Assembly: GCA_964527765.1 (NCBI GenBank)
Contig: CAZGQR010000004.1
Span: forward strand, 64,083 to 128,082
Length of the DNA: 64,000 nucleotides
Direction of reading: 5' to 3'
Source of the DNA: an uncultured Planctomycetia bacterium
Lineage (GTDB): Bacteria > Omnitrophota > Gorgyraeia > Tantalellales > Tantalellaceae
The position numbers and the translations under genes are program-made. Of this stretch, positions 31,893 through 58,157 are shown one piece after another (the first letter of the stretch is position 1; every line of letters begins with the position of its first letter). Under the pieces are notes generated by a model that worked only from the letters and a program-made list of their open reading frames with translations, did not search any database and was not told the origin of the DNA.

Positions 31893-31893
31893 T

Positions 31894-37207: not shown

Positions 37208-37211
37208 TTGA

Positions 37212-39603: not shown

Positions 39604-39606
39604 AAT

Positions 39607-40377
39607 ATGAAATGTGCCATAATGCAACCCACATATTTTCCATGGATCGGATATTTTGATCTATTGTCGCAGGTCGACAAGTTTGTCTTCCTGGATGATG
39701 TTCAGTTGGCCAGACGTAGCTGGCAGGTAAGGAACAGGATAAAAACCGCAAATGGAGAACTTTATCTTACAGTCCCCGTATTGAAGACGAAAAGCAGGGA
39801 TGAGCAGGTGATTTGCGGATCACATATGTGTCCGGAAAAGCAATGGAGGCAGAAACATATAAACTCTATCAGGTTTTCGTATAAAAAGTCCGGATTTTTT
39901 CATGAAATAATTTCCATGGTGGAGGAGCTTATAAATGCAGATACGTCCGACTTATCCACTTTTAATATTAATATCATCAAAAGGATCTCTCGGGGGATAG
40001 GCATCAATACAAATTTTCTCAAAGCATCCGAACTTAAAGGCGTTAGCGGCGCCAAGGACTATCGTCTGGCTTCGATCTGCAAGAAAATAGAATGCGATGA
40101 ATATGTCTCGCCGCCCGGGGCCGCAGATTATATCGAAAAGGAATCTCCGGGGGGCGTATTCCGGATCGAGGGCATAAAACTTTATTACCATAGGTATAGA
40201 CACCCTGTTTATCCTCAGCTTTACGGCGATTTTCTGGAATATATGAGCATTATCGATTTACTGCTTAATTGCGGTTTGGGTGAAAGTCTGCAGATTATAA
40301 AAAAGGGGTCCGTAGAGGCGATCAGCTCTCCGGAATTTCGGAAGAATCATTTTAATGATGAGGAGTCTGATTTATGA
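39607..40377 (+). CDS. WbqC-like family protein (unknown function, polysaccharide loci)
   Basis: MKCAIMQPTYFPWIGYFDLLSQVDKFVFLDDVQLARRSWQVRNRIK matches the WbqC-like family N-terminus. Confidence 0.6.
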   Translation: MKCAIMQPTYFPWIGYFDLLSQVDKFVFLDDVQLARRSWQVRNRIKTANGELYLTVPVLKTKSRDEQVICGSHMCPEKQWRQKHINSIRFSYKKSGFFHEIISMVEELINADTSDLSTFNINIIKRISRGIGINTNFLKASELKGVSGAKDYRLASICKKIECDEYVSPPGAADYIEKESPGGVFRIEGIKLYYHRYRHPVYPQLYGDFLEYMSIIDLLLNCGLGESLQIIKKGSVEAISSPEFRKNHFNDEESDL

Positions 40378-41426
40378 ACAGGGAAATTTGCATAGGCAAC
40401 CGGTCCATAGGGGGAAGGAACCCCCTTTTTGTTGTAGCGGAGATTTCGGCTAATCATGCCCAAAAATTCGATAGAGCGGTCGAATTGATAAATAAAGCCA
40501 AAGAATGCGGCGCTGATGCGGTGAAATTTCAAACTTACACGCCGGATACTTTAACTTTGGACATTGACAGCAAATACTTTCAGATAGAACATCCTGAATG
40601 GGGCGGAAGGACATTGTACAGCCTGTATCAAAAAGCGCATACCCCTTGGAAATGGTTTAAGAAGCTTAAAGAAACGGCTGACAACGTCGGAATTGTATTT
40701 TTTTCCACTGCTTTCGACAGAACTTCAGTCGATTTTCTGGAGGGAATAGGCGTCCCCGTGCATAAAATATCTTCTTTTGAGCTGGTTGACCTCCCCCTTA
40801 TTGAATACGCGGCAAAAACGGGAAAGCCGCTCATTTTATCGACGGGCATGGCGACTATCGCAGAAATAAGAGAAGCGGTAAATGCGGCGAGAAAGGCGGG
40901 AGCAAAGGAAGTCATCCTGCTTAAATGCGCGAGCAGTTATCCCGCTGTTCCGGAAGACATGAACCTGAAAACCATCCTTCATATGAAAGAATTCTTCAAA
41001 TCCCATGTCGGGCTTTCCGATCATACTTTAGGGATAGAGACATCAATAGCGGCCGTATCGCTTGGGGCCGTTATGGTCGAGAAACATTTTACTTTGTCCA
41101 GGAAATTTAAAACGCCTGACAGTTTTTTCTCGATAGAACCGGGAGAATTGAAGCAGTTAGTGAAGAGTGTAAGAATAGCAGAGCGCGCACTGGGAAAAAT
41201 CCAATACGGACCTGTGGAGAACGAAAAAAAGAGCATGGCTTTCAGGAAGTCTTTATTTGCTGCGGAAGATATCGAAAAGGGAGAAGTCTTCACCGATAGC
41301 AATATACGGGCCGTGAGACCGGCCAATGGTTTAAAGCCAAAATGTCTAAAGACTATTTTAGGGAAAAAGGCACGAAAAAAGATAAGAAAAGGGATTCCCT
41401 TGGATCGGACTCATGTCGGGAAGTAG
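40374..41426 (+). CDS. pseI: Pseudaminic acid synthase, PseI (NeuB family with SAF domain)
   Basis: FVVAEISANHAQKFDRAVELINKAKECGADAVKFQTY matches the PseI-type N-terminus (SANH rather than GVNH). C-terminal SAF domain. Confidence 0.85.
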   Translation: MNREICIGNRSIGGRNPLFVVAEISANHAQKFDRAVELINKAKECGADAVKFQTYTPDTLTLDIDSKYFQIEHPEWGGRTLYSLYQKAHTPWKWFKKLKETADNVGIVFFSTAFDRTSVDFLEGIGVPVHKISSFELVDLPLIEYAAKTGKPLILSTGMATIAEIREAVNAARKAGAKEVILLKCASSYPAVPEDMNLKTILHMKEFFKSHVGLSDHTLGIETSIAAVSLGAVMVEKHFTLSRKFKTPDSFFSIEPGELKQLVKSVRIAERALGKIQYGPVENEKKSMAFRKSLFAAEDIEKGEVFTDSNIRAVRPANGLKPKCLKTILGKKARKKIRKGIPLDRTHVGK

Positions 41427-41453: not shown

Positions 41454-43895
41454 ATGCATTATAGAAACAATATGGATTTCAGATTTTCGTCAAAAGCGGA
41501 TGTTCTTGAGTGGCTGAGACCGCGGGTGAAACATTCCTGCGTGGAGAAGCTCTACGTATGCACCGTTGATCGATGGATGAAGGACGCGGACACGGTGTTC
41601 AGGGAAATACAGAAAGAGTTCCCGGAAGGCAGGATTGTTATGAGAAGTTCTTCGCTGCAGGAGGACGGGTTGACCGGTTCCAGAGCGGGATATTTCAAAA
41701 GCGTACTCGACCTTCCGGTCCTGTTTTCCAGGACAGAAGCCGCCGCTGCCGCGATAATCGATTCTTACAAGAGGGCGGAACGCGACGGAACAGGCGGAGG
41801 ACCTGGCACGGACAGGGAGCAGATCCTGGTGCAGTCGCAAACCGGAAATATCCGCGTGAGCGGGGTGGTCTTCACACGTCAGATAGAGACTAACGCGCCT
41901 TATTACGTGATCAATTATGATGATAGGAGCGGCAGGACGGATACGGTTACCGGCGGGATGGAAGGCAAAGTGATATATATTTCACATTTTGCCGATGCAT
42001 CATCCGACGCAAGATGGAGAGGGCTGATACGGGCGGTCAAGGAACTTGAATTCCTGTTCAAGGGGGCGGTCCTCGATATAGAGTTTGCTATTACGGGGGA
42101 AGGTAAGGTGGTCATTTTTCAGGTCAGGCCCCTCGCGGCGAACCGTGATATCGCGATGCCCGAGGACGGGTTTACCAGGCATCTTATAGAGGATATGGTG
42201 AAGAAATTCAGCCGCTTCTCGCAGCGCGTGCCTCATCTGGCCGGCGAGACCACCGTTTTAGGCGATATGCCCGACTGGAACCCCTCGGAGATCATAGGCA
42301 GCCGGCCGAATACTCTTGACTACACGATGTACAGCTTTATCGTGACGGATGAAGTCTGGCACGAAGCAAGAAGCTCTCTTGGGTACTATGACGTCTATCC
42401 CGCGGAACTCATGCTTTCTTTTGGCAAAAAACCCTATATCGACGCAAGGGCGAGCTTTAATTCTTTCACCCCCGCCGATATGCCACATGAGCTCAGGGAA
42501 AAACTGGTGAATTACTATCTGGATAAGCTGAGGAAAAATCCTGCCTATCAGGATAAGGTGGAATTTGAAATATTGTGGACCTGCTATGATTTTTTGACAG
42601 CAAAGAAACTGAATATATTGTCAAAGCACGGGTTCAGCAGCGCGGATATTGACACTTTTTCAAAGGCGCTGAAGGGCCTTACAAACAGCATACTGAAGGA
42701 TTCCCGCGGCATCACGGAACACGACCTGAAACAGGTGAAACTTTTGACCGAGCGGCGGGACAGGATCATGCGGTTTTACGGGAAGAGCGATAAAACGCCC
42801 TGGAATTCGCTCCATACGGCCTACGGCATCCTGCAAAACTGCAAAAGGTTCGGGACATTCCCTTTTTCCAGACAGGCGCGACTGGCTTTTATAGCAAAAA
42901 GTTTTCTCATTAGCCTCAGAAAAGAAGAGGTTGTTTCGGAGGAATTCTACCATGACTTTCTGAACTCGATACGCACCGTAGCTTCCGAATTCAATGATGA
43001 TTTTTATCGTCTGCAGAACGGGGAGCTAGACAAAGATTCTTTCATCGGGCAGTACGGACATCTAAGAGCCGGGACATATGACATCACCACCCCCAGATAT
43101 GATAGCTCTTCCAATCTCTTTGACGGACAGGCCGACGCAAAGGCGGTCCGGCGCCCGATGTACGGTTTTAACGCGCCAAAGAAGGTCCTGAAGAATATTG
43201 ATAAACTGATGGAACTTCACGGCATACACGGGAACGGCGCGTACCTGATGGATTTCATGAGATCGGCCGTCAGGAACAGGGAATGCGCCAAATTCGAATT
43301 TACCAGAAGCCTGAGCGACGCGTTGGAATTGATCGCCGAAGCCGGAAAAATGCTGGGCTTTGACCGTGAGCAATTATGTCACGCGGATCTTCCCACGATC
43401 ATGAAATTTCGCAATCCCGAACACGGCGATTCGGATTATGCCCGGAAGATCATAAAGCAGTCCATAGACAGACATAAGAAGGAAAGAGAATGGTATGACG
43501 CGGTCATTCTCCCTCCCGTGATAATTTCCGAGAGGGATTTTTATTATGTGGAACCTTATGAGGCGATACCGAATTTTATTACGCGCAAGTCCGTAAAGGG
43601 CCGGATCATTACTTTCGACGAGATAAAACACATGAAAGAACATGTTTTAGAGGGCCGTATCGTGCTTCTGGAAAATGCGGATCCCGGGTTTGACTGGATA
43701 TTTACAAAAAGACCTCTGGGGATAGTTACCAAGTACGGAGGGGTGGCTTCCCACATGTCCATAAGATGCGCCGAGTTTGGCATACCGGCCGCGATAGGAT
43801 GCGGCGACGTTATTTATGATGGCCTGAAAAAGGCGAAACTTGTCGAACTGGACTGCATGAGGAAGACCGTAAGGCCGTTAAACAGTCATGGATAA
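41454..43895 (+). CDS. PPDK/PEP-synthase-like ATP-dependent kinase lacking a PEP-binding TIM barrel; candidate L-glutamine kinase (Cj1418-like)
   Basis: N-terminal ATP-grasp/PPDK_N-like region. C-terminal PEP-utiliser swivel domain with phosphohistidine motif GGVASHMSIRCAEFGIPAAIG. Protein ends about 55 aa after the His, so there is no PEP/pyruvate-binding domain, as in small-molecule kinases of this fold. Followed by C26, NTase and APS-kinase-like genes in the same order as cj1418c-cj1415c. Confidence 0.65.
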   Translation: MHYRNNMDFRFSSKADVLEWLRPRVKHSCVEKLYVCTVDRWMKDADTVFREIQKEFPEGRIVMRSSSLQEDGLTGSRAGYFKSVLDLPVLFSRTEAAAAAIIDSYKRAERDGTGGGPGTDREQILVQSQTGNIRVSGVVFTRQIETNAPYYVINYDDRSGRTDTVTGGMEGKVIYISHFADASSDARWRGLIRAVKELEFLFKGAVLDIEFAITGEGKVVIFQVRPLAANRDIAMPEDGFTRHLIEDMVKKFSRFSQRVPHLAGETTVLGDMPDWNPSEIIGSRPNTLDYTMYSFIVTDEVWHEARSSLGYYDVYPAELMLSFGKKPYIDARASFNSFTPADMPHELREKLVNYYLDKLRKNPAYQDKVEFEILWTCYDFLTAKKLNILSKHGFSSADIDTFSKALKGLTNSILKDSRGITEHDLKQVKLLTERRDRIMRFYGKSDKTPWNSLHTAYGILQNCKRFGTFPFSRQARLAFIAKSFLISLRKEEVVSEEFYHDFLNSIRTVASEFNDDFYRLQNGELDKDSFIGQYGHLRAGTYDITTPRYDSSSNLFDGQADAKAVRRPMYGFNAPKKVLKNIDKLMELHGIHGNGAYLMDFMRSAVRNRECAKFEFTRSLSDALELIAEAGKMLGFDREQLCHADLPTIMKFRNPEHGDSDYARKIIKQSIDRHKKEREWYDAVILPPVIISERDFYYVEPYEAIPNFITRKSVKGRIITFDEIKHMKEHVLEGRIVLLENADPGFDWIFTKRPLGIVTKYGGVASHMSIRCAEFGIPAAIGCGDVIYDGLKKAKLVELDCMRKTVRPLNSHG

Positions 43896-44592
43896 TATGT
43901 ATTATGCGATCTCACTGAGCGTCGAGCCGGGCGATGTTCCCCGGGATTTTCTGTATACCGACTATCGCTTTTTTTTCGAGAAGTTCGGATGTAGACTCGT
44001 TTATCTACCCAATCACGCCGGTGCGATTGGATCCTATTTTGACGATTTACCGCTCAGCGGGGTGATATTGTCCGGCGGCAACGATCTGAGCGCCGAGTTC
44101 ACCGGCCAGGTGGATCTTGACATACGTAACCCGGCGCCGGGGCGGGATGCTGCGGAAAAAAAGATACTTGATCTCGCCGTTGCGAGAAAAATGCCCGTGT
44201 TGGGCATATGCCGCGGCATGCAGTTTATAAACTGTTATTTCGGAGGATCTATAACGCAAAAGATCGGAGAGCAAGGGGGTGCGAAACAGCCGCACGTGAA
44301 GCGGAAACATATGATCGCGATCTGTGATAATGAAACGTCTGAATTTTTAGGTGCAAAAGAGATGGAGGTCAATTCTTATCATCATCAAGGCATAAAAAAA
44401 GACCAGGTTGCCGCGGATTTAAAGATAATGGCGATATCTCCCGGGGACGGGATCGTAGAAGCGGTTTATCATCCTTCATTGCCGCTGGTGGGCGTGCAAT
44501 GGCATCCCGAGAGAGAAGGCTCCTCGCCAGAAGTAAATGACAGGTTGATTGAAGCGTTTGTGTGGAGAAAACATCACTGGAAGGATAAATGA
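43888..44592 (+). CDS. Class I glutamine amidotransferase-like / peptidase C26 hydrolase (Cj1417-like candidate gamma-glutamyl-CDP-amidate hydrolase)
   Basis: Nucleophile elbow GICRGMQFIN and His-Glu VQWHPE. Confidence 0.7.
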   Translation: MDNMYYAISLSVEPGDVPRDFLYTDYRFFFEKFGCRLVYLPNHAGAIGSYFDDLPLSGVILSGGNDLSAEFTGQVDLDIRNPAPGRDAAEKKILDLAVARKMPVLGICRGMQFINCYFGGSITQKIGEQGGAKQPHVKRKHMIAICDNETSEFLGAKEMEVNSYHHQGIKKDQVAADLKIMAISPGDGIVEAVYHPSLPLVGVQWHPEREGSSPEVNDRLIEAFVWRKHHWKDK

Positions 44593-45371
44593 TGAAGGCC
44601 ATTATACTTGCCGCCGGTGAAGGAAAAAGGCTGAAACCGTTTGCGGAAAATATGCCGAAATGCCTTATAGAACTTGAAGGCAAGAGTATACTTGACCGAC
44701 AGATAGAGGTAATACGCCGTTGTGGGATAGATGACGTAATAGTCGTAAAAGGGTACATGGCGAACAGGATCAACCGCAAAGATGTCCATTATTATTTTAA
44801 CAAGGATTATGGCACGACAAATATGGTCATGACATTGTGGTGCGCCGAAAAGGAATTGAAGGGTGAGGTAGTCGTTTCTTATGGCGACATCGTATATAAC
44901 GAGGAAGTGCTCCGTAGTCTAATCGATTCCGCCCACGACATATCCGTTGTAGTGGATGTCGCCTGGGAGAAGTACTGGAAAATGCGGTTTGACGACCCCT
45001 TGAAAGATGCCGAAGCTTTTAAGATGGACAGAACAGGACGGATAGAAATTATCGGTCAGAGAGCTGAAAGGATTTCGGATATCGAAGCGGGTTACATAGG
45101 ATTGGTCAAGTTTCGGGGCGGGGGGATGAAAGCTTTTAGGGAATCGTTCTTGAACGCGCGAAACGTTTCCAGGAACGGGGGGAAGGCATGGGGCGCGCCC
45201 CGACCATTCGAAAAATCCTATATGACAGACATGCTCCAGGGGCTGGTCAATGAAGGTCATGACGTATACGGGGTCAAGGTGGAAGGCGGCTGGGTAGAAA
45301 TAGATTCACCCAGCGATTATGATCTGGCGAAAAAGTTGTTTGTGGACGGAAAAATCAAAGCACTGGTTTAA
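44589..45371 (+). CDS. Short-form nucleotidyltransferase (Cj1416-like candidate CTP:phosphoglutamine cytidylyltransferase)
   Basis: MKAIILAAGEGKRLKPFAENMPKCLIEL G-loop signature. 260 aa. Confidence 0.7.
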   Translation: MMKAIILAAGEGKRLKPFAENMPKCLIELEGKSILDRQIEVIRRCGIDDVIVVKGYMANRINRKDVHYYFNKDYGTTNMVMTLWCAEKELKGEVVVSYGDIVYNEEVLRSLIDSAHDISVVVDVAWEKYWKMRFDDPLKDAEAFKMDRTGRIEIIGQRAERISDIEAGYIGLVKFRGGGMKAFRESFLNARNVSRNGGKAWGAPRPFEKSYMTDMLQGLVNEGHDVYGVKVEGGWVEIDSPSDYDLAKKLFVDGKIKALV

Positions 45372-45387
45372 AAAGGAAAGACAGATC

Positions 45388-46677
45388 ATGAAAACCATAT
45401 TTATTGGCGGGATTCAGAGAAGCGGCGGTTCTTTATTGGCGCGTTTATTCGATGGTCACCCGGATATTGCAAGTTATCCCGTGGAATGCAGTTTTCCCGT
45501 GAATAATAAGATCTATCCCGTTTTTGAAAATTATACCGGCATTCCCTTGACCATGCCGTTGTTTGATCCGACGGCTGATAAGGACATTTTTGAGATAACG
45601 AATACCCCTTCTGAAAAACCGAAAGTGATACTTAAATTCGGAAAGGAAAAGGAAGATCTGATAGGCGTGCGCAGGAACTATCTGGAAAAGGAATATTATG
45701 ACACGGTTAAAACCGACTTTGACTTTTTCAGATTCAAAGCGCTTTTTACTTCTTATGCGGAGGTGGCTAAAACAATAGAGGAACTTTACGACGCGAAACA
45801 CAGAGCTTACTTCGCCGCCTGGGATAACGGGATGCATTCCGGGAGCATGAAATTTGTTTCATGGCATTCCAGTTCCGGGATATACCTTACGAATATAGAC
45901 AGATATTTTAGCGAGTTCAAGGATTCATTTTTCATCCACCCGTTACGGGATATTATGGGGTATATTGCGTCTGAAAAAACAAGATTAACGAGGCAATATT
46001 ATGGTTCACGCCGTTTTCCGAAAATGAAAATGCCCAATATTTTTGTCAAGAAATTCAAGAACTATGATCTGGAAGCTCAGATCAGAGGATGGATGGCCAC
46101 GTTGACCCGGGTGGTTCTCCTGCAGGAACGATTCGGGGTGCGGGACAGGTTTTTTGTCGTCAGATACGAAAATATTGCAAATGATGCTGAATCTGTCATG
46201 AGATCTTTATGCGAAAAAATAGGCTTGGATTTTCATAATACTTTGCTTGAACCCACAATAGGCGGTTATCCCTGGGGCGGGAATTCGCACCAGGGCAAAC
46301 AGCGGGGCATTAATAAGGATTTAAGTTCATATTATCCGCAGGTCCTGACATCGCAGGAAATCAGGCTTATTGATAGATCCACGGCGCCCATTAGAGAATA
46401 TCTTGATCGATGCAAAGAGACCCCGGCAGATTTGGGGAAGATTCGTAAAAAGCATTTGTATGATTATGAATATCAGAAAAGATATTTCGACGACGAAGAA
46501 AAACTCTTTTTATATTACGCGCTTGTAAACAGCGGCAGGCGGAAGATAACGGTCAAGAACCCCGACTTTACGGCGATCATCGCTTTTTTGTATAAAAAGA
46601 TAATCCATCTTATTCATATACCACGCTTGCTTAAATTGAGGTTTTTTCACGGATGGGGGAAGCAGAACTATACATAG
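45388..46677 (+). CDS. Sulfotransferase-fold protein (Sulfotransfer_3-like) with PAPS-type 5'-PSB and 3'-PB motifs
   Basis: 5'-PSB loop GGIQRSGGSLLARLF. 3'-PB-like HPLRDIMGYIAS (R-x7-S). Start set at ATG 45388 (MKTIFIGG) after an AAAGGAAAG RBS; the ORF-track extension to 45319 overlaps the upstream gene. Confidence 0.65.
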   Translation: MKTIFIGGIQRSGGSLLARLFDGHPDIASYPVECSFPVNNKIYPVFENYTGIPLTMPLFDPTADKDIFEITNTPSEKPKVILKFGKEKEDLIGVRRNYLEKEYYDTVKTDFDFFRFKALFTSYAEVAKTIEELYDAKHRAYFAAWDNGMHSGSMKFVSWHSSSGIYLTNIDRYFSEFKDSFFIHPLRDIMGYIASEKTRLTRQYYGSRRFPKMKMPNIFVKKFKNYDLEAQIRGWMATLTRVVLLQERFGVRDRFFVVRYENIANDAESVMRSLCEKIGLDFHNTLLEPTIGGYPWGGNSHQGKQRGINKDLSSYYPQVLTSQEIRLIDRSTAPIREYLDRCKETPADLGKIRKKHLYDYEYQKRYFDDEEKLFLYYALVNSGRRKITVKNPDFTAIIAFLYKKIIHLIHIPRLLKLRFFHGWGKQNYT

Positions 46678-46737
46678 AGAGATTGCTCCGCGACATGAAG
46701 ACATGTACGAGCAAAGCGCATTGAAAGAGAGGCTTGT

Positions 46738-47271
46738 ATGGGGCACATAATATTGCTAACGGGTATTTCCGGTTCGGGCAAGACCACGCTGGGGAATGCT
46801 TTGAAAGACGTTCTTACCCGGGAGGGCAGGCGGCCGGTTGAATTTATCGACGGCGACACAACACGTGAGTTTTTGGGTAATGATCTGGGTTATGCCCCGC
46901 GGGACCGGTTGTTGATAACGAAACAGATAGCATACGCGGCGTATTTATTGTCTAAGAACGGCATTGATGTCATTGTGGCCAATATCGCCGGCAGCTATGA
47001 GATCCGGGATTATTTGAGGGGGAAATGGGAACGGTATATACAGATTTTTCTGGATGCCGACATCGAAGACTGTATCAAAAATGACCGCAAGGGCGTTTAC
47101 GGGAAAGCCCTGGAATCGGAAAAACCCTGGCTTTACGGGATAGATATGCTCTATGAAAAGCCGCGTAGCCCCGACTTAACGGTATATCCTTACAAGGAAA
47201 GCGTGAAAGAAAGTCTTAGCAGGATAATAGATTGTTTGACGGGAAGGAAATTTTTCACAGTAAAAAATTAA
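46738..47271 (+). CDS. Adenylylsulfate (APS) kinase-family P-loop kinase (Cj1415-like candidate cytidine diphosphoramidate 3'-kinase)
   Basis: P-loop ILLTGISGSGKTTLGNAL. IDGDTTREFLGNDLGYAPRDR and KGVYGKA align with the CysC DGDNIR...LGFS..DR and KGLYKKA blocks. Confidence 0.8.
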   Translation: MGHIILLTGISGSGKTTLGNALKDVLTREGRRPVEFIDGDTTREFLGNDLGYAPRDRLLITKQIAYAAYLLSKNGIDVIVANIAGSYEIRDYLRGKWERYIQIFLDADIEDCIKNDRKGVYGKALESEKPWLYGIDMLYEKPRSPDLTVYPYKESVKESLSRIIDCLTGRKFFTVKN

Positions 47272-47283: not shown

Positions 47284-48240
47284 ATGTCTGGATTCGAGAT
47301 AGAAAGAAAAGCGTTCACCAAAAATCTGGCTTTGATAACCGGGCTTACAAGGTCCGGAAAGTCTATGCTGGGCCCGATAGTTTCCAGTTTCGAAGGTGCT
47401 GAAAACGTAAGACTTAACTATCTCATGGAATTGGTCCCTCCCATGAATAAGATAGAGCTGATAACGGAGGATGTCGCAATTTATCTCATGAGGCATGCTG
47501 TTGATTTCATGCTGTATGACAATATGATAGGACGGAATTCAAATTTTCGGCCTTCGGATTATACGAGCATATGGAGGACAAAGAACCCCGCTAAGTATTT
47601 TCAGCGCTTATTCAGAAAAGAAGGCGATCTTGTTTTTGACGAATTAATGGAAAAAAATATCATTTTTGTTTTGATGTTCCACAATGGACCGTGGTTTGCG
47701 GATATTTTATTCAAAGCTTTTCCGGACATGAAAATGCTGTATGTAAAAAGGAATCCCGTTGATGTGGTGTCCTCATGGTACAAGAAAGGGTATGGCACAG
47801 ATTTTTATGCGAAACCCAGAAACGGGCTTTTAACGATAAAATGGAAAGGCAGGACCCTGCCTTTTTATTCCGCGGGATGGGAGGAAGAATATTGTTCTTT
47901 GGGAGAAGTGGACAGGATCGTATTTACAATAAACAAGATCGAGATGAAATTTAAAGAAACATTGCATGGTCTTTCGGACGCGCAGCGCGAGAACATTATG
48001 GAAGTTTGCTTTGAGAGAATGGTCACAAAGCCGGATATGGTGATCCCTGAGGTCTGTAGATTTTTGGGCACAAATGAGACCGCATACACGCCCAGGGTCC
48101 TTAAGCAGGAGCTTTGTCCGCGGGTTCTTCGCGAAAAAGATCAGGAGGAAAAGTTCAATAAGATCAAGGAAAATTGTTCGTCGAAAGCCGCGGATCTGTT
48201 GGGAGCCATGGTTAAAGGATATAAAGATAACGCAGGATAA
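47284..48240 (+). CDS. Sulfotransferase-fold protein with PAPS-type 5'-PSB and 3'-PB motifs
   Basis: 5'-PSB ITGLTRSGKSMLGPIV. Classical 3'-PB YVKRNPVDVVSSWY. GGGGAG RBS. Confidence 0.7.
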   Translation: MSGFEIERKAFTKNLALITGLTRSGKSMLGPIVSSFEGAENVRLNYLMELVPPMNKIELITEDVAIYLMRHAVDFMLYDNMIGRNSNFRPSDYTSIWRTKNPAKYFQRLFRKEGDLVFDELMEKNIIFVLMFHNGPWFADILFKAFPDMKMLYVKRNPVDVVSSWYKKGYGTDFYAKPRNGLLTIKWKGRTLPFYSAGWEEEYCSLGEVDRIVFTINKIEMKFKETLHGLSDAQRENIMEVCFERMVTKPDMVIPEVCRFLGTNETAYTPRVLKQELCPRVLREKDQEEKFNKIKENCSSKAADLLGAMVKGYKDNAG

Positions 48241-48243: not shown

Positions 48244-50160
48244 ATGAAGTACTGTTTGATAGAAAAATGGCACGCTGATTATTCTCTTCCCAGGGAGTGT
48301 AAAGTCGTGCCTTTGACCACTGAAGCGAGTGATTCGCTTGAGAAATGCGGCGTTGATTATGTGACGTTCCAGGAGTATTTTTCATCGGGCGAGGTTCGCG
48401 GCGACACGGACGGTTATCTTGATTCTCAGCGGGTATGGTTCCGGGAATTTGACCGGTTTGTTTGGAGCGTTTTTCCCGAAGCGGAAAAAATGAAGGTCCG
48501 GTTACCCTCGCTTTACTTTTACAATATAAAACACCTGGTAGATTGCGCCGTGCTGACCGCAAGGATCATCAATAAGTTTCTGGATGTTGTCAAACCGGAT
48601 AAGGTCTGGTTCATCCCGAAGATCCGCGGCAGCGGCAAAATGCATCGGTGGTACTGGTATTCTTTCGACAGAAGTGCCTTCGCGCATTTATTGGAGCCGC
48701 TTTGCCGGAAAAGGGGGATTGCATTCGAAGAGTTGTATGCCGACCAAGAGCAGCCCCCGACGCTAAAAGAAGACACGGTGAAACCCTTCGCTGGAATAAT
48801 GAAAGTTAAAGGCTTGTTCACATCCAGGATCAGAGGTTTTCTTAAAACGGCCAGGGAAGTATGTGCGCAATATCCATATTTTGTTTTCTTTTCGAAACAT
48901 AAAAAAGGCAGCATCCTGGTCGTGAACGTCAAAAATTATCTTTATGACTTTTGCCGAGATTGTCGCAAGAACGGATTCAGCGTGTTCCTGAAAAACGGAG
49001 ATTATGTGCGTAAGCCCTCCTTATTCCCGGCAAAAGAAAAGATCGGTCCGGGAAAAAGCAGCGGCGCGAAATACCCGAACGGTCCTGACAAAGATTCTGT
49101 TATGGATGGTTTCATCCGCAGTGGCGTCATGGACTGGATAAACGAACGGTGTGGACTGGACGTTTCTTCCATGATGTATCCAAGATTTAAATATGTTTTG
49201 TGCGATGTTTTTCCAGAAACACTGAGCTGTATAAAGAGTTTTGTCGATTTTTACAACAGGAATAATATAGATTTTGTTGTTAATTATTCCCTTTCTTCAG
49301 AGGATGAGTTTGCTGCTGCAGCTGCCGCGGCGATCAGCGATTCCACGAAAAGCGTTGGTTTTAGCCATGGCACCGATGCTTATGAGGCAAAACCCAGATT
49401 TTTTCTGGAATACAACCACTATGATTTCTATTTCGTGAATACGAAAGCAGAGGCGGACCACATAAAAGGCCTGGCCGATGGGTATGGTTTTTCAAAGCCT
49501 TCAGCGCATGAATACCCGTATTTCCGGAAACGCTTTTCCCGGATAGCTGAAAAAAGAAGCCGGGCAGAACGACTGAAAAAGACGCGTAAACAAGATAAGC
49601 CGATCGTTCTTTTTGCTCCCGTGATGCGCACAGAGAGGATGCATATGCCCATTGTGAATACTCAGCCACTTCAATGGGATTATTTCAGGTGGCATTACGC
49701 TCTTATTGACTATTTTGCGTCAAGATCCGATTTCAGGTTCGTATGGAAGGCGCTTTTACAGCCCTTGGGTTTCGGGGATACTATCCGTGATCTTTTGCAG
49801 GACAAGCGCTATGGGAACATCAGTTTCAGTTCCGATAAGTTAAGCGAATGGATGATCGCCGCTGACAGAATATTGTGCGATGTTCCCGGAGGGGCGTTTT
49901 ATGAAAGCATTTTCAGCGGGATACCGACGCTGGCTTTTTACCGTCCGAAAGACCAGGAACTCCGCAAGGATGCTTATCATGTTTTCGGCCCGAGTTTACA
50001 GCCATATTCGACCATTGAAGATGGGATCAAAGCGGTTGAGGATTTTCTGGACAGCGCTCCCAAAAGATATATTGTTACAATCCCTCAAGAGCGATCGTCC
50101 GTGCCCGGTATTCTTATGAATGGCGTTCAAGAAAGGCAAGATCATGTCGGAAGAATATAA
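48244..50160 (+). CDS. Hypothetical 638-aa protein with TagF-like (CDP-alcohol phosphotransferase-like) C-terminal pattern
   Basis: PIVLFAPVMRTER (compare TagF KVILYAPTWRD) and IAADRILCDVPGGAFYESIFSGIPTLAFYRP (compare TagF SDILITDYSSVMFDFA..KPIIFY). Same architecture and length as the 20992-22917 protein. Confidence 0.4.
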   Translation: MKYCLIEKWHADYSLPRECKVVPLTTEASDSLEKCGVDYVTFQEYFSSGEVRGDTDGYLDSQRVWFREFDRFVWSVFPEAEKMKVRLPSLYFYNIKHLVDCAVLTARIINKFLDVVKPDKVWFIPKIRGSGKMHRWYWYSFDRSAFAHLLEPLCRKRGIAFEELYADQEQPPTLKEDTVKPFAGIMKVKGLFTSRIRGFLKTAREVCAQYPYFVFFSKHKKGSILVVNVKNYLYDFCRDCRKNGFSVFLKNGDYVRKPSLFPAKEKIGPGKSSGAKYPNGPDKDSVMDGFIRSGVMDWINERCGLDVSSMMYPRFKYVLCDVFPETLSCIKSFVDFYNRNNIDFVVNYSLSSEDEFAAAAAAAISDSTKSVGFSHGTDAYEAKPRFFLEYNHYDFYFVNTKAEADHIKGLADGYGFSKPSAHEYPYFRKRFSRIAEKRSRAERLKKTRKQDKPIVLFAPVMRTERMHMPIVNTQPLQWDYFRWHYALIDYFASRSDFRFVWKALLQPLGFGDTIRDLLQDKRYGNISFSSDKLSEWMIAADRILCDVPGGAFYESIFSGIPTLAFYRPKDQELRKDAYHVFGPSLQPYSTIEDGIKAVEDFLDSAPKRYIVTIPQERSSVPGILMNGVQERQDHVGRI

Positions 50161-50866
50161 ATATTTCAAGAACCAATATCTTGACGACATCAGGGAAAAC
50201 TATTTCAAACCCGTGCTCGATGATGTTTTCAAAAAATACGGGAAGAACATAAAGGTCATGGGGGATGTAGGTTGTGGTAACGGCATATTCAGCACTTATT
50301 TGAAGAGAGAACGCGAAATAACGCTGTGCGGGTTTGACGCCAGCGAGTACGCCCTTGAATGTGCGCTGCGGAAGGGCATGGACAAAGTCTTCTTGAACGA
50401 GGATTTCAGCACGCGGGCGTTGCAGGTAAACGATGCTTATTTTGATTTTGTCCTTAATAAAGATGTCCTGGAACATCTCATGGATCCGGAATTCTTGATA
50501 AAGGAGATCGCCAGGGTGTTAAAACCCGATGGGCTGTTTCTTTTGCACGTTCCCAATGATTTTAACCTGTGGAAGAGGATCCAGTTTGTTTTTTCCAACA
50601 GTATCGATACGTACAGCTATTGCCCCGGCGCGAAGCAGTGGAACTGGCCACACATACGTTTTTTTACGTTTGAAGGCATAAAAGAACTGTTGCACATGCA
50701 TGGTTTTGAGATCATAGAGAATTACAGCTCTTTTTTTGCTCATCGACTTTCGAAAATACACAGGATCCCGGGATATATGCCGGTAGCCAGGTTGCTCGCC
50801 GGCAGATATCCGTCGCACTTCTCTCAGGCGGTGAGCGTTTTAACGAAGAGGGGAAAAAAAGCATGA
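50144..50866 (+). CDS. Class I SAM-dependent methyltransferase
   Basis: Motif I VMGDVGCGNGIFSTYL. FDFVLNKDVLEHL. Start at ATG 50144 preferred over 50120. Confidence 0.65.
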   Translation: MSEEYKYFKNQYLDDIRENYFKPVLDDVFKKYGKNIKVMGDVGCGNGIFSTYLKREREITLCGFDASEYALECALRKGMDKVFLNEDFSTRALQVNDAYFDFVLNKDVLEHLMDPEFLIKEIARVLKPDGLFLLHVPNDFNLWKRIQFVFSNSIDTYSYCPGAKQWNWPHIRFFTFEGIKELLHMHGFEIIENYSSFFAHRLSKIHRIPGYMPVARLLAGRYPSHFSQAVSVLTKRGKKA

Positions 50867-52800
50867 GAAACGAAAGTTCAAATACATCGAAAAGGTCCGC
50901 GGATGTCGTTTTGCTGCAGTTGCCCTTTTGGGGGGTAGGGTGCCCGCCTCTGGGGCCGGCGCTTTTGAAAAGCTACCTGGCGCAAAACGGCATTTCCTGC
51001 AAAGTATTCGATATCAACGCGCATGCCTACTCTATACGGGGCAAAAGATATTTCGACTGGTGGGAATTGAAGAACGGATATTATTTTTTTCAGGGCGACG
51101 AGGGGAAAATGCTTGAGTATTACCGTGATAACAGGGCGTTATTCCTTTTTTATATAGGTGAGATCATCAAGCTGAGCCCGAAGGTCGTCGGGTGCTCATG
51201 TCATAATACTTCCATCACGTTGAGTAAAATATTTCTGGGGGAATTGAAGAACTACTTGCCGAATTGTAAATATATCCTTGGAGGACCGGAAGTTGCCGGA
51301 TTTATGAATAATGCGGACCAGCTCTTGTCGGAGGATTATATTGACGCCGTGGCGCTTGATGAGGGTGAGAAGAGCCTCGTTGGCTATTTCCGGGGCCTGG
51401 AGGAGGATTCCGAAGGCCCCATACCCGGTCTTGTGTACAAGAAAGACGGACGTATCATCGAAGGCGGGGAGGTCGATATTATCGGGGACCTGGATGAGCT
51501 TCCCTTTCCCGATTTCAGCGAATTTAACCTTGAGCATTATTATAAACCGAACTCATTGCCAAGTTATACCTCCAGGGGATGCGTGAACAGATGCATATAT
51601 TGCAGCGGCAGGACTTACATGAAGCGCTTCAGGAATCGGTCCGGTAAGAGGATATTCGAGGAATTCAAATATCTGAAAGAACATTATCCCGAGGCCGACT
51701 ATATAAGACTGTGTGATAATGTCTCCAACGGCGATATCAAAAAGCTGGAATCGCTGTGTGACCATTTAACGGAGGCGGACCTGGGTATAAGTTGGACGCT
51801 GGATAATGCCGTTATTCGCAAAGAAATGAGAGCGCCGCTTTATAAAAAACTAAAGAAAGCGGGATGCACGCTGATAGGTTACGGTTTGGAAACGCCGTGT
51901 CACAGGATACTCGAGAACATAGGCAAGCATTTTTCGAGGGGGGTTGATTTTGTAAAAGTGTTCAAAGAGGGCAAAAAGGCCGGGATATATATAAGCGTTA
52001 ATGTGATGTTCGGCTTGCCGGGGGAAACGGAAGAAGATTTCAGGTATATGATCAATTTTGTGGTAAAGAACAGACGCGCGTTTAACATGCTGAACCCGTC
52101 CCTGACTTTTTGCGAATTTTATCCCGGTTCAGCAGGGTATGACGAACCGGGAAGGTTCGACCTGGATATGGCCAAGGGAAGCCTTTTTTGGGAGTCCGTC
52201 GATGGGGCCAATAACTATCTCGTAAGGATGAGGCGTTTTGAGGAATTTTGCAAGGTTCTGAACAAATATAAATATGACACTCTTTTTTATGTCAAGGAGC
52301 TTCCGAATAAGCATGCCCTTTTATTTGAATATTATTTCATAAGCAATGAGTACGATAAAGCCATGGAGCATTACGGGAAAATACCGCTCGATCAGATCAA
52401 TGCCAAGGTAAAAGAGATATACCGCAAGATCAACGGCAAAAGCGTGCCGGGAACCGGGGAAAAGAAACTGCGATTAAGCGACTTTATAGAGAAAGATAAA
52501 ACGTTCGAAGAATCATTTTTGGAGGTTTCTTTGGCCGAGGCCATAGAACAGTTGCAAAAGACGGACGTATTTGAACTCGGCCCCAAAAAGGCGTGGAAGC
52601 GGAAGTTGCGCTCCTTTGCACATCGCGTAATAGGTTATGACAGGATCGAGGAAAGGGTCAGCAGCGTTTATTCCATGATGAAACTTATTGACGCCAAAAT
52701 AAACTGTTATGCGGCCGCCGCGTACAGCCACAAAAATGGAATAGGCGAAGAAGAAAAGATTGAAGTAAAAAATCAAAGGATGCGTGGATTGACCGGATGA
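50863..52800 (+). CDS. B12-binding domain radical SAM enzyme (second copy)
   Basis: N-terminal B12-binding-like VVLLQLPFWGVGCPPLGPALLKSYLAQNGISCKVFDIN. SRGCVNRCIYCSG CX3CX2C motif. ATGA overlap with the upstream gene. Confidence 0.75.
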   Translation: MRNESSNTSKRSADVVLLQLPFWGVGCPPLGPALLKSYLAQNGISCKVFDINAHAYSIRGKRYFDWWELKNGYYFFQGDEGKMLEYYRDNRALFLFYIGEIIKLSPKVVGCSCHNTSITLSKIFLGELKNYLPNCKYILGGPEVAGFMNNADQLLSEDYIDAVALDEGEKSLVGYFRGLEEDSEGPIPGLVYKKDGRIIEGGEVDIIGDLDELPFPDFSEFNLEHYYKPNSLPSYTSRGCVNRCIYCSGRTYMKRFRNRSGKRIFEEFKYLKEHYPEADYIRLCDNVSNGDIKKLESLCDHLTEADLGISWTLDNAVIRKEMRAPLYKKLKKAGCTLIGYGLETPCHRILENIGKHFSRGVDFVKVFKEGKKAGIYISVNVMFGLPGETEEDFRYMINFVVKNRRAFNMLNPSLTFCEFYPGSAGYDEPGRFDLDMAKGSLFWESVDGANNYLVRMRRFEEFCKVLNKYKYDTLFYVKELPNKHALLFEYYFISNEYDKAMEHYGKIPLDQINAKVKEIYRKINGKSVPGTGEKKLRLSDFIEKDKTFEESFLEVSLAEAIEQLQKTDVFELGPKKAWKRKLRSFAHRVIGYDRIEERVSSVYSMMKLIDAKINCYAAAAYSHKNGIGEEEKIEVKNQRMRGLTG

Positions 52801-54140
52801 AGATCGTTCATTTTACCCATAACGTTATCGACGGCGCAGGAAAGGCGGCGTATCGATTGCACAAGGCGCTGCAGCGGGAAGAAGGCCTGGAATCTTTGAT
52901 GCTGGTCTGCAGGAAGGGACATGGGGACGATTCGGTCATCCAGGTCTGCAACACTCTTTTTACGGACAGGCCCGGTTTAGCCGGGCTCGGCGAAGACGTT
53001 TTCAGGAAATTCTTCAGAGCTATCCCGTATATCTGCAGGCAGGTTTACTGGAAGATGAAGAGGCGCAAATGGAAACCGCTGACGCTTTTTAATTTCAATA
53101 TTCCGTATATTTCCATGCGGAGGATAAAGAAATATCTGTGCGGCGTCGATATTATTTGCCTGCATTCGGTCCAGTCATTTTTATCCCCGGGACTGATCAG
53201 GGACATTCACAGGTTCTGCCGGGCGCCCGTGGTATGGACTTTGATGGATGTTGAACCTTTGACCGGCGGATGTCATTTTAGCGGAGAGTGCAGAGGTTTT
53301 GCGGGATCCTGCGGCAATTGCCCGCAGCTCGCCGTGCGGGGAGAAAATGACATCTCAAGACGCATATGGAAGGAAAAACGCGAATATTTCAGGGATGTCC
53401 CGCTTACTTTCGTAGCCGCCTCTTCCTGGGTCCGTGAGCATATCGCGGACAGTTCATTGTTCGGCTCCAGACGGATAGAAAAGATATTCCTTGGCGCGGA
53501 TCGCAGTATTTTTGAGAGAGTGCATAAAAAAGCGGCACGCGAGATACTTGGCCTGCCGGAAGAAAGCAGGATCATCCTTTTCGGGTGTTTTGACCTCGAT
53601 GATCGGCGAAAGGGAGCGGATCACCTGGAACGGTCCCTGAGCGTCCTGCCCCGGAAGATCTTGCCCGGTCACAGGGAGCTGTTTGATCAGGTAGTTCTTG
53701 TTACTTTCGGCAGGACGGACGGACGCACCTTTTCAGGAATACCGTTCAAATGGATACATCTCGGGGAATTGAGAGACGACAGGCTTATCGCGCTTTCGTA
53801 TCAGGCCGCGGATGTTCTGGCGTGTCCGTCTATTGATGATTTTGGACCGATGATAGTGAATGAGGCGTTCATGTGCGATCTGCCCGTGGTTGCTTTTGAC
53901 CGCGGGGTAGCTCCGGATCTGGTAAAAACAGCCGGATCCGGTTATATAGCCAGAAGATACGATACCGATGATTTCAGTTCGGGCATATTGAAGTGTCTGT
54001 CGGAGGAAGAGAATGGGGCGGCTACCGACGAGATCCTGCGTTTAAAAGAGATGTGCAGAACGGACTTTCAGGCGCGGCAGTACGCGAGACTTTTTGAAAA
54101 ACTTCTAAGCGAAAAAAGCGATAAAAAAGGAGTTTTATGA
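52797..54140 (+). CDS. GT4-family glycosyltransferase
   Basis: GT-B N-terminal MKIVHFTHNVIDGAGKAAYRLHKAL. EX7E-like NEAFMCDLPVVAFDRG. Confidence 0.7.
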   Translation: MKIVHFTHNVIDGAGKAAYRLHKALQREEGLESLMLVCRKGHGDDSVIQVCNTLFTDRPGLAGLGEDVFRKFFRAIPYICRQVYWKMKRRKWKPLTLFNFNIPYISMRRIKKYLCGVDIICLHSVQSFLSPGLIRDIHRFCRAPVVWTLMDVEPLTGGCHFSGECRGFAGSCGNCPQLAVRGENDISRRIWKEKREYFRDVPLTFVAASSWVREHIADSSLFGSRRIEKIFLGADRSIFERVHKKAAREILGLPEESRIILFGCFDLDDRRKGADHLERSLSVLPRKILPGHRELFDQVVLVTFGRTDGRTFSGIPFKWIHLGELRDDRLIALSYQAADVLACPSIDDFGPMIVNEAFMCDLPVVAFDRGVAPDLVKTAGSGYIARRYDTDDFSSGILKCLSEEENGAATDEILRLKEMCRTDFQARQYARLFEKLLSEKSDKKGVL

Positions 54141-56049: not shown

Positions 56050-57177
56050 ATGAAGATCGAATTTTACAGGCACAGCCTAGAAAAGGAAGATAAAAACGAA
56101 GTGGCAAAAGTCCTGGATTCCGTTTTTTTGACTTCCGGGGAGTGGACAAAGGCGTTTGAGCGGAAACTAGCCGATTATGTAGAAAGCAGATACGCGGTGG
56201 GATTGACTTCCTGCACGAATGCCCTGGAGATCACGTTGAAATATTTCGGAATAGAACAAGGTGACGAAGTCATCACGACGCCCATGTCCTTTATAGCGAC
56301 TGCGAATGCCGTGGAATATTGCGGGGCGAAGCCCGTGTTTGTTGATGTGGAGCCGGACACCGCGAATATCAATGCGGACCTGATAGAAAGCGTGGTCACC
56401 CCGAGGACAAAAGCGATATTACCGGTGCATCTTTACGGGCATATGTGCGATATGGGAAGAATAAGAAAGATCGCTGATAAACACGGCCTGAAAGTTATCG
56501 AGGATGCCGCCCACTGCATGGAAGGTCAAAGAGACGGCATCAAACCGGGACAAGTGGGGGACGCGGCCTGTTTCAGTTTTTACGCCACTAAGAACATTAC
56601 CTGCGGGGAGGGCGGCGCCGTTTCGTGCAATGATCCGGAGATGTATGACTGGTTATTTAAAGCAAGGATGCACGGGATGACCAAGAATGCGGCCGATCGT
56701 TATTCTAAAAAATATGAGCATTATGACATGGACTTTCTGGGGTTTAAGTGCAATATGAGTAATATCCAGGCCGCGCTTTTAATCCATCAGATTGAAAGGA
56801 TCGAGACGTTGCTGTCTGCAAGGCAAAGGATCGCCCAGCGATATGATGAAGCCTTTCTCGGCAATCCTGGTATAAAGGTGCTTGGGACTTTGCCTGGGAC
56901 CAGACACGCCAGGCATCTGTACACGATACTGGTCGATCCACGTAAGAGGGACGAATATATGCACAGGTTGCAGGAAGCGGGCGTCGGTGTCGCGATCAAT
57001 TACAGATCCATCCATCTGATGAAGTATTATCGCCAAAAATACGGGTATAAAAGAGGGGATTTCCCGGTATGCGAAAGGATAGGGGATTCGACTATTTCCA
57101 TTCCTTTTTATCCCAAGCTGAGCGATGAAGAGGCAGGATACATTATTAACGCGGTGAATTCAATGACGAATTCGTGA
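56050..57177 (+). CDS. DegT/DnrJ-family PLP-dependent NDP-4-keto-6-deoxyhexose aminotransferase
   Basis: GLTSCTNALEITL, TPMSFIATANAVEYCGAKPVFVDV, and FSFYATKNITCGEGGAV (PLP lysine region). GGAGGA RBS. Confidence 0.8.
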   Translation: MKIEFYRHSLEKEDKNEVAKVLDSVFLTSGEWTKAFERKLADYVESRYAVGLTSCTNALEITLKYFGIEQGDEVITTPMSFIATANAVEYCGAKPVFVDVEPDTANINADLIESVVTPRTKAILPVHLYGHMCDMGRIRKIADKHGLKVIEDAAHCMEGQRDGIKPGQVGDAACFSFYATKNITCGEGGAVSCNDPEMYDWLFKARMHGMTKNAADRYSKKYEHYDMDFLGFKCNMSNIQAALLIHQIERIETLLSARQRIAQRYDEAFLGNPGIKVLGTLPGTRHARHLYTILVDPRKRDEYMHRLQEAGVGVAINYRSIHLMKYYRQKYGYKRGDFPVCERIGDSTISIPFYPKLSDEEAGYIINAVNSMTNS

Positions 57178-57194
57178 GTCGATCGGGAGGTAAA

Positions 57195-58157
57195 ATGAAC
57201 AGAAGAAACGAGCAGATCGAAGCCGTTAGCGGGTGGTGGAACACTGAAAGAAACAAGGAAAAATGGGACAGGGCTTATATCAAGACAAATGTTCATGGCA
57301 GGATGTATTTGAAAACACGGCAAAGGCGCGTTCTTAATTACATGAATGAGGCCGGCTTAAAAGAGGGTTCCCGGGTTCTCGAGTTGGGTTATGGCGCGGG
57401 ACAGACGGCTTTGGAGCTCGGGAAACGGGGATTTGAGGTCTACGGCTTGGATATTTCGGAGAAATTTCGTGAGGTAGCCAGTGCAAGGTGCAGGAGGATG
57501 CATCCGGAGGGAAAATTTTATTTAAAAACCGGGAACATTGAATCAAATTATGAATTCAAGGATGGTTTCTTTGACGCGGTGGTTGTGGTTGGAGCTTTGC
57601 AGTATCTTTACGACCCTTCTGTCTGTCTGAGAGAAGTATTCAGGGTCCTCAGGCCCGGAGGGTTCTTTGTAGTAGCCCAGAGAAATATTTATTCTCTGAG
57701 CAATTTGACTTCACCGAGGGAATTCGCGCGTGCCTGCGCCCATTTTTTCCTGAGAGAAAAATACGAATTATTCCCTTCGTTCAAGTCCATACTGGTCGAC
57801 TCAAAACTGGGATGTATATTCAAACGGTTTGAAGGCTCAAAGTTTTTTAATACGCGATTCATGCTAAAAGGGCATGATGAGTGGAAATTCAAGATCAAAA
57901 AAAGGATAAATTCATATTTCTCCCTCAAGTCGATACTGAAAAGGGAGGGGTTCGCCACGCTTAAAGCCGATGGTGCCTATTATTGCGTTTCCGAGACACC
58001 GCGGTTCTTCTATATCAATCTGAAAGCGGACAGGCTGATCGAAAAAATAAACGGCAAGCTGAGAATACCTTATTTGTTCACGTTGGGAAGAAGCATTGTT
58101 TTGCTGTGTAAAAAAGGGGCGAGGGAAGCGTTTTTGCAAAGATCGGGAGGCATGTAA
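57195..58157 (+). CDS. Class I SAM-dependent methyltransferase
   Basis: Motif I VLELGYGAGQTALELG. Start at ATG 57195 directly after a GGGAGG RBS; the ORF-track start at 57174 would contain that RBS. Confidence 0.6.
   Translation: MNRRNEQIEAVSGWWNTERNKEKWDRAYIKTNVHGRMYLKTRQRRVLNYMNEAGLKEGSRVLELGYGAGQTALELGKRGFEVYGLDISEKFREVASARCRRMHPEGKFYLKTGNIESNYEFKDGFFDAVVVVGALQYLYDPSVCLREVFRVLRPGGFFVVAQRNIYSLSNLTSPREFARACAHFFLREKYELFPSFKSILVDSKLGCIFKRFEGSKFFNTRFMLKGHDEWKFKIKKRINSYFSLKSILKREGFATLKADGAYYCVSETPRFFYINLKADRLIEKINGKLRIPYLFTLGRSIVLLCKKGAREAFLQRSGGM

Follow-up and report, generated by a model that had tools for sequence, protein, structure and literature searches.

A predicted GT-B fold transferase encoded next to a phosphoramidate cassette travels with nonulosonate synthase genes

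Introduction

Which step of surface-glycan assembly is carried out by a transferase-like protein that is encoded immediately downstream of a phosphoramidate cassette in an uncultured bacterium of the Omnitrophota? The question is raised by a 64,000-nucleotide stretch of DNA, called the window below (GenBank assembly GCA_964527765.1, contig CAZGQR010000004.1, positions 64,083 to 128,082; family Tantalellaceae in GTDB), in which a gene for a 638-amino-acid (aa) protein (48244-50160, + strand) and an overlapping methyltransferase gene (50144-50866, +) follow counterparts of the Campylobacter genes Cj1418, Cj1417 and Cj1416. An interpretation made from the nucleotide sequence alone (the sequence-only reading) had proposed that, within a phosphoramidate island, this pair provides a TagF-like phosphoramidate transferase and an O-methylating enzyme, comparable respectively to Cj1421/Cj1422 and Cj1419/Cj1420 of Campylobacter jejuni, and that a 641-aa protein encoded elsewhere in the window (20992-22917, +) is a near-twin of the transferase. 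To our knowledge, the biochemistry of MeOPN-type phosphoramidate glycan decoration (MeOPN, O-methyl phosphoramidate) is known only from Campylobacter, and we know of no in vitro reconstitution so far of the transfer steps of Cj1421/Cj1422 or the methylation steps of Cj1419/Cj1420; our literature search turned up no fold or biochemical description of these four proteins.

Here we report that the 638-aa family travels with genes for NeuB/PseI nonulosonate synthases and not specifically with the phosphoramidate cassette. We tentatively read the protein as a cytidine-nucleotide-dependent transferase of a pseudaminic acid (Pse)-type glycan, most probably a glycosyltransferase that uses a cytidine monophosphate (CMP)-nonulosonate, and we weigh this reading below against three others.

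Results

The genomic context of the 638-aa gene was compared across related loci, which are given L numbers. A NeuB-family synthase gene lies within 10 kb of the 638-aa gene in the window and in all eight related loci that have enough flanking sequence (nine of nine informative loci), and the synthase is of the PseI type, 49-67% identical to the window PseI, in L007, L010, L011, L016, L017 and L018. By comparison, the Cj1418/Cj1417/Cj1416 cassette accompanies the gene in the window, L006, L010/L012, L011 and L016, where the L016 homologue is only 28% identical to the window protein, and is missing from L007, L009, L014, L017 and L018; the family is not bound to this cassette. The cassette position is taken in L007 by a phosphonate module consisting of phosphoenolpyruvate mutase, phosphonopyruvate decarboxylase and aldehyde dehydrogenase genes (L007:4110-8817) and in L009 by a CDP-OH-P-transferase/Fe-ADH/nucleotidyltransferase module (L009:3044-6607); in L014, a genuine Glyphos_transf gene (L014:8195-9415) is found immediately downstream of the 638-aa homologue. 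Distant members of the family (21-23% identity) reside in the Wzx-type loci L017 and L018, the latter of which also has PseB, PseC, PseG/H and PseI genes, and sulfation genes with an ATP sulfurylase are present in L006, L012 and L015.

Other neighbours, too, are constant. The commonest immediate upstream partner of the family, a gene for a 318-aa sulfotransferase-fold protein (47284-48240, +, in the window), is directly upstream in six loci (window, L006, L007, L011, L014 and L016), cassette-free ones included. Further constant neighbours are a 645-aa B12-binding radical S-adenosylmethionine (SAM) protein (50863-52800, +), with homologues at 36-63% identity in L006, L007, L010, L011 and L016, and a 447-aa glycosyltransferase of family GT4 (52797-54140, +); the window, L006, L007, L009, L010, L014 and L016 all have a GT4 gene downstream of the 638-aa one. 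Because the NeuB/PseI, 318-aa, radical SAM and GT4 neighbours are constant, the 638-aa protein behaves like a core enzyme, with decoration modules being swapped around it, and the comparison suggests that modules for glycan head-group decoration (phosphoramidate, phosphonate, glycerophosphate and sulfation) are exchanged between loci.

Within the window, every gene from ~17.7 kb to 63 kb is on the + strand with short gaps, consistent with a single long surface-glycan cluster. Two complete nonulosonic-acid pathways lie there side by side, each with its own NeuB-family synthase and CMP-synthetase. One (25861-33674) is of the legionaminic/neuraminic type and comprises a NeuB_NnaB equivalog (508 bits), a 2-epimerase, a WbuX amidotransferase, a CBS-nucleotidyltransferase and a CMP-synthetase; the other (33710-41426) is of the pseudaminic type, with PseB-like, PseC-like, B12-radical SAM, PseF-like, PseG-like and WbqC-family genes, a methyltransferase gene and, as its last gene, a PseI-type synthase (40374-41426, +; 465 bits). 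No Maf, sialyltransferase or KpsS-like gene recognisable by Pfam was found in the window; the only transferase-fold proteins found there are the 638-aa protein, the 641-aa protein, one GT4 and one GT2. Of these, the 638-aa protein is tied to PseI, and the 641-aa protein to an ATP-binding cassette (ABC) exporter and the legionaminic/neuraminic-type pathway. The cluster also makes a 4-amino-6-deoxyhexose-type sugar (dehydratase at 54970, aminotransferase at 56050 and RmlD-like gene at 59434).

Both genes of the pair are placed as the sequence-only reading had them, as is the gene for the 641-aa protein. The 638-aa protein occurs with identical sequence on 16 public contigs from several samples, which, together with 731 family representatives, indicates a real gene. 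The methyltransferase open reading frame can be extended to an upstream ATG at 50120 (50120-50866, 248 aa); public gene calls on identical contigs start at 50144, yielding 240 aa and a 17-nt overlap with the 3' end of the 638-aa gene. When 5.8 billion proteins were searched by word index, just nine relatives of the 638-aa protein (40-46% identity) came up; the 731 proteins, nearly all of them 600-650 aa long, were recovered at E<=0.001 by exhaustively searching 1.84 billion cluster representatives with a profile. Plasmid sequences searched by tblastn gave no match, and a search for related loci with a ten-sequence alignment yielded just two genome loci. No Pfam family, PF04464 (Glyphos_transf) included, matched the 638-aa protein at E<=1, and none of the 70 members that we aligned matched PF04464 at E<=0.01. 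Searches of PDB sequences with phmmer and hmmsearch likewise returned nothing for the protein or its family, TagF and TarL included. The nearest described family is TIGR04331 (LIC12162 family transferase), matched by 19 of the 70 aligned members (best E 1.6e-9) and by the window protein itself at E 0.032; the precomputed Pfam annotation, PF27859 (LIC12162), is marked weak. Scoring 13 bits where the curated cut-off is 225, the window protein falls outside the LIC12162 family proper, and on these profile scores the 638-aa family is best described as a small, rare and uncharacterised sister group of the LIC12162 transferases.

The AlphaFold model of the 638-aa protein (pLDDT 78, pTM 0.80) identifies it as a predicted GT-B fold transferase, in line with the fold that had been anticipated. 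Its Foldseek matches are GT-B enzymes (E 2e-7 to 5e-5), among them the GT4 enzymes BshA and MshA, UDP-GlcNAc 2-epimerases and OtsA, and TagF is absent from the top 50. No transmembrane-like segment was detected, the maximum hydropathy over 19 residues being 1.39. Across the 70-member alignment, His375, within an S-H-G-T motif, is the sole invariant residue (70/70), followed by Asp546 (69/70), Asn525 (68/70), Lys502 and Pro548 (66/70 each), Glu554 (64/70) and Gly376 (61/70). Next to Pro548, the window protein departs from its family: it reads D-V-P-G-G-A (Gly549-Gly550, window 49888-49893) where the family motif is D-x-P-S-T-A, with Ser in 53 and Thr in 64 of the 70 members. All nine close homologues keep the Ser-Thr pair, and the window protein alone among these relatives has Gly-Gly, a change that may alter donor binding.

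How close, then, is this protein to TagF? For profile comparison, TagF, TarL and Cps3D segments were rebuilt from PDB alignments to the genuine Glyphos_transf protein of a related locus, and 120 TagF relatives were added. With hhalign, the 638-aa family matched the TagF family at 68.7% (E 4.5e-5, 192 columns of the C-terminal domain) and the neighbouring GT4 family at 21.5%; TagF against GT4 itself gave 34%, the 641-aa family against TagF 72.9%, and reversed-sequence controls 0.1-0.5%. HMM-to-sequence scores were weak, not exceeding 15 bits with the 638-aa family or 22 bits with the 641-aa family. The profile alignment places PIVLFAPVMR on TagF VIMYAPTWR and DRILCDVPGG on TagF DCLITDYSS, the Arg of the APTWR motif not being conserved across the 638-aa alignment, and it brings His375 onto the catalytic His444 of TagF (W-H444-G-T) only when extended at low confidence (-mact 0.01). 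The C-terminal motifs that had been taken as TagF-like thus stand as real family motifs, probably reflecting a remote, superfamily-level similarity; membership of the 638-aa protein in the TagF family is not borne out by the profiles.

The position of the 638-aa gene downstream of a phosphoramidate cassette is likewise genuine. The cassette (41454-47271, all genes on the + strand) encodes a Cj1418-like glutamine kinase (41454-43895), a Cj1417-like amidohydrolase (43888-44592), a Cj1416-like cytidylyltransferase (44589-45371), a 429-aa Sulfotransfer_3 protein (45388-46677) and an APS-kinase/Cj1415-like kinase (46738-47271). Campylobacter-type references were obtained by scanning metagenome contigs for an exact match to a published cj1420 RT-PCR primer (PMC3907429), which yielded two loci with the expected gene order: L019, with Cj1422-like (625 aa), Cj1421-like (612 aa), Cj1420 (259 aa) and Cj1419 (253 aa) genes, and L020, with Cj1420, Cj1419, Cj1418 (781 aa), Cj1417 and Cj1416. 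The first three genes of the window cassette match Cj1418, Cj1417 and Cj1416 with E-values of 7e-145, 3e-18 and 4e-56, respectively. The Cj1421/22-type proteins of L019 carry DUF2972 (PF11186; E 1e-72 to 2e-73), and no such protein was found in the window, where the best, non-significant BLASTP matches are the 638-aa protein (E 0.11-0.18) and the 318-aa protein (E 0.4-0.7). The 638-aa protein has no PF11186 match, and its family aligns with Cj1421/22 at 0.2% in hhalign; by these comparisons it is unrelated to Cj1421/Cj1422, of which it had been suggested to be an analogue.

Since the window has no Cj1421/22 homologue, another enzyme must transfer the phosphoramidate. In the window, L006, L010/L012 and L016, the gene next after the Cj1416-like one encodes the 429-aa Sulfotransfer_3 protein, which none of the cassette-free loci has. 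The Campylobacter donor is 3'-phospho-CDP-amidate (CDP, cytidine diphosphate), a 3'-phospho-nucleotide resembling 3'-phosphoadenosine 5'-phosphosulfate (PAPS). Given the cassette linkage and, by analogy, this PAPS-like 3'-phosphate, the Sulfotransfer_3 protein would be a more natural candidate for the phosphoramidate transferase.

Two further observations concern the sulfotransferase-fold proteins and the kinase. A gene fusing pyruvate-kinase-like, PUA_2 and ATP-sulfurylase domains occurs in L006 (6259-8493), L012 (7229-9433), L013 (2811-5000) and L015 (705-2894), between the Sulfotransfer_3 and APS-kinase-like genes in the first three and directly upstream of the 638-aa homologue in L015. The window is without it, and the fusion raises the question of whether the role of the kinase encoded at 46738-47271 is PAPS synthesis, CDP-amidate phosphorylation or both. 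In addition, the C-terminus of the Cj1421/22-type protein encoded at L019:4827-6665 (residues ~579-595; LVYIKQHRPDIVASW) resembles residues 149-165 of the window 318-aa protein (MLYVKRNPVDVVSSW), a motif like those that bind the 3'-phosphate in sulfotransferases, which hints at a sulfotransferase-related DUF2972. We do not claim that Cj1421/22 is homologous to the sulfotransferase-fold proteins of the window, as the hhalign match spans 17 motif columns at 7.8% and is not significant.

The methyltransferase encoded at 50144-50866 is a class I SAM enzyme, as had been recognised (Methyltransf_11/23, with Methyltransf_11 at E 4.6e-20; best PDB match 3CC8, a putative methyltransferase). Its assignment as the counterpart of Cj1419/Cj1420 fares less well. 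In BLASTP it matches Cj1419 at E 1.2e-4 to 0.003 and one copy of Cj1420 at E 0.31, the other copy not being among the matches listed; the 327-aa class I methyltransferase encoded at 57174-58157 (+), the best match in the window, scores better (E 4e-6 to 9e-5 against Cj1419, ~0.005 against Cj1420). In hhalign, all window methyltransferases align to Cj1419/20 over the SAM-binding core alone, the two best over 92-124 columns and some others over far fewer, against 241 columns for Cj1419 with Cj1420. Homologues of the 57174-58157 methyltransferase (42-63% identity) occur in five of five cassette-bearing loci and in none of the five cassette-free ones; in L016 the gene is within the cassette, and in L011 it directly adjoins it. 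The 50144-50866 type was seen in the window and L006 only, two of the five cassette loci, and is fused to a sulfotransferase domain in L006. We therefore reject 50144-50866 as a specific Cj1419/1420 counterpart, given its core-only similarity and its presence in two of five cassette loci, and on sequence and co-occurrence regard 57174-58157 as the better candidate for phosphoramidate O-methylation; the 50144-50866 protein, a generic class I enzyme, possibly acts on some position of the glycan or a precursor. The 645-aa radical SAM protein encoded directly after it gave weak NCBIfam matches that include C-methyltransferases and P-methyltransferases.

The 641-aa protein appears to be a PFTS-motif polysaccharide biosynthesis protein (TIGR04417/PF27878). 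It matches TIGR04417 at E 4.6e-19 (68.7 bits, under the cut-off of 100), and its precomputed PF27878 match is unmarked, meaning E<=1e-5; our Pfam scan returned no match at E<=1. Its AlphaFold model (pLDDT 77) shows a GT-B fold whose 50 best structural matches include TagF and Cps3D, and the protein's remote relationship to TagF is clearer than that of the 638-aa protein. The two models are co-linear, with an identical order of strands and helices, which preserves the architectural part of the near-twin proposal. At the sequence level, BLASTP between the two proteins (E 0.27) and profile comparison of their families (hhalign 1.8-5.8%) lead us to reject near-twin paralogy; what they share is architecture, by analogy or through very distant homology. 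Homologues of both families were found on contigs of 67,230 bp and 52,294 bp, which suggests that the two share contigs in two other samples. In a conserved block beside legionaminic-type genes (window 19190-25812; L021:8203-14843), the 641-aa PFTS protein is accompanied by the ABC exporter, a carbamoyltransferase and a radical SAM-SPASM protein; the L021 locus is 34% identical, and there, too, the PFTS protein tracks the legionaminic-type pathway.

Discussion

Overall, the gene pair is real and the intuition about its fold was right, and the results on PF04464, on BLASTP between the two proteins of about 640 aa and on the methyltransferase largely go against the sequence-only reading: assignment to the TagF family, to Cj1421/22 or Cj1419/20 counterparts and to a near-twin pair is not supported. 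Our tentative alternative is that the 638-aa protein would act as a soluble or peripheral GT-B transferase, with a core function in making a surface glycan of the pseudaminic-acid (NeuB/PseI) type. The C-terminal Rossmann domain, which is TagF-like, would bind a cytidine-nucleotide-activated donor, most probably the CMP-nonulosonate of the Pse-type pathway encoded just upstream, through the likely donor-binding residues Lys502, Asn525, Asp546-x-Pro548 and Glu554; the invariant His375, in the N-terminal half of the GT-B fold, may deprotonate the acceptor hydroxyl, upon which CMP would leave. The 641-aa PFTS protein could do likewise for the other nonulosonate, of the legionaminic/neuraminic type, and the methyltransferase overlapping the 638-aa gene would act generically on the glycan or a precursor of it.

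Several points count against the CMP-nonulosonate glycosyltransferase. The 638-aa family is biochemically uncharacterised throughout, and the neighbourhood counts come from about ten related loci, some of which are syntenic and hence not independent. Bacterial sialyltransferases have D/E-D/E-G and His-Pro motifs; the motifs of the 638-aa protein (His-Gly in the N-domain, x-Pro after the first strand of the C-domain) are presumably more TagF-like than sialyltransferase-like. The donor site of the window protein is atypical in that Gly549-Gly550 replace the conserved Ser-Thr. A Cj1416-like cytidylyltransferase, found near almost all close homologues, is equally compatible with the donor of a phospho-head group, and in L018 a KpsS/Capsule_synth-like protein encoded beside PseI could be the Pse transferase instead.

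The cytidylyltransferase leads to the explanation nearest to the sequence-only reading, a TagF-like phosphotransferase that moves a phospho-head group from a CDP- or CMP-linked donor to the glycan (phosphoramidate in the window, phosphonate in L007, polyol-phosphate in L009), with His375 as the base, like His444 of TagF. The C-domain does match the TagF family better than GT4, three TagF motifs align in order with the catalytic His among them, and the Cj1416-like nucleotidyltransferase is near every close homologue with enough flank except that of L014, even as the head-group cassette varies; the lack of a DUF2972 transferase in the window leaves phosphoramidate transfer to some other protein, and glycan decoration by a TagF-like enzyme with a CDP-linked donor has a precedent in FtaD (bioRxiv 10.64898/2026.02.12.704994). 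Yet not one of the 70 members matches Glyphos_transf, TagF is outside the top 50 structural matches, and the APTWR Arg is not conserved. Moreover, family members in L017 and L018 lack any head-group cassette, the L014 homologue adjoins a genuine Glyphos_transf gene able to do the job, and the 3'-phosphate of the Campylobacter donor would favour the cassette-linked sulfotransferase-fold protein (45388-46677). We consider such a phosphotransferase unlikely, and regard as similarly doubtful the broader proposal that the 638-aa family is an unrecognised TagF-like branch installing interchangeable cytidine-nucleotide-activated head groups on pseudaminic-acid glycans; if that were true, the family would be the missing, non-orthologous phosphoramidate transferase outside Campylobacter.

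An ordinary backbone glycosyltransferase acting on a UDP-, GDP- or dTDP-sugar, with no special link to nonulosonates or phospho-head groups, would fit the GT4 enzymes and UDP-GlcNAc 2-epimerases among the top structural matches, the few family members that match Glyco_transf_4 (best E 1.2e-5) or Glyco_trans_1_2, and the 4-amino-6-deoxyhexose-type sugar genes of the cluster. It would, however, assign no transferase to either CMP-nonulosonate of the window, and it is at odds with a NeuB/PseI association that persists in very distant members and with a C-domain that is nearer to the CDP-binding TagF family than to GT4; we judge it improbable. The loss of the donor-site Ser-Thr, kept by all nine close homologues, might also mark the window protein as a catalytically impaired or scaffold copy with a structural or regulatory role. 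This is very improbable, as His375, Lys502, Asn525, Asp546, Pro548 and Glu554 are all intact and the identical protein recurs in several samples. Besides, glycine-rich loops can bind phosphate through backbone amides, so that Gly549-Gly550 could still serve. The CMP-nonulosonate glycosyltransferase thus remains our tentative choice among these explanations.

These findings place a Cj1416-1418-type cassette in an environmental bacterium, within a pseudaminic-acid glycan cluster lacking any Cj1421/22 homologue, and sort the candidates around it: the 638-aa GT-B protein is independent of the cassette, and the Sulfotransfer_3 protein and the 57174-58157 methyltransferase, which co-vary with it, are the more interesting leads for phosphoramidate decoration than the 638-aa gene pair. 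For the LIC12162-like and the PFTS proteins, two uncharacterised families met repeatedly in nonulosonate loci, they also offer an initial hypothesis of function.

Set beside known systems, the 638-aa protein shares with Cj1421/Cj1422 of C. jejuni, which carry a C-terminal DUF2972, its size (612-625 aa in the latter) and its closeness to a Cj1415-1418-type cassette, but no detectable homology. Cj1419 and Cj1420 are, like the 50144-50866 protein, class I SAM methyltransferases of ~250 aa encoded next to a phosphoramidate cassette, the likeness being confined to 92-124 residues of the SAM-binding core. With TagF, TarL and TarF (PF04464; PDB 3L7I, 8VA1), the 638-aa protein appears to have in common a GT-B-type catalytic core of two Rossmann domains after an N-terminal extension, His-Gly, x-Pro and D-x-x-S/T motifs in the same order and, plausibly, a cytidine-nucleotide donor; it differs in lacking a PF04464 match and a sequence match to TagF-like structures and in the conservation of the APTWR Arg and the DYSS serines, and TagF is a top-50 structural neighbour of the 641-aa model, not of the 638-aa model. 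FtaD (CD0244) of Clostridioides difficile, a TagF-like CDP-N-methylthreonine:GlcNAc phosphotransferase that reportedly resembles TagF by BLASTP and TarF by Foldseek (bioRxiv 10.64898/2026.02.12.704994), offers a functional analogy for phospho-head-group transfer, with its CDP-linked donor, its glycan phospho-head group and the nucleotidyltransferase and methyltransferase genes alongside; set against it by description only, the 638-aa protein is not recognisably TagF-like in direct searches of the BLASTP or Foldseek type. The closest parallel is the LIC12162 family (TIGR04331/PF27859), likewise of putative function and mentioned once only in the literature that turned up. Although the 638-aa protein scores far under the cut-off of that family, the two agree in length (~600-640 aa) and in their setting, O-antigen or capsule loci beside nonulosonate synthase genes, and published LIC12162-family genes also adjoin neuABC (PMC6679464).

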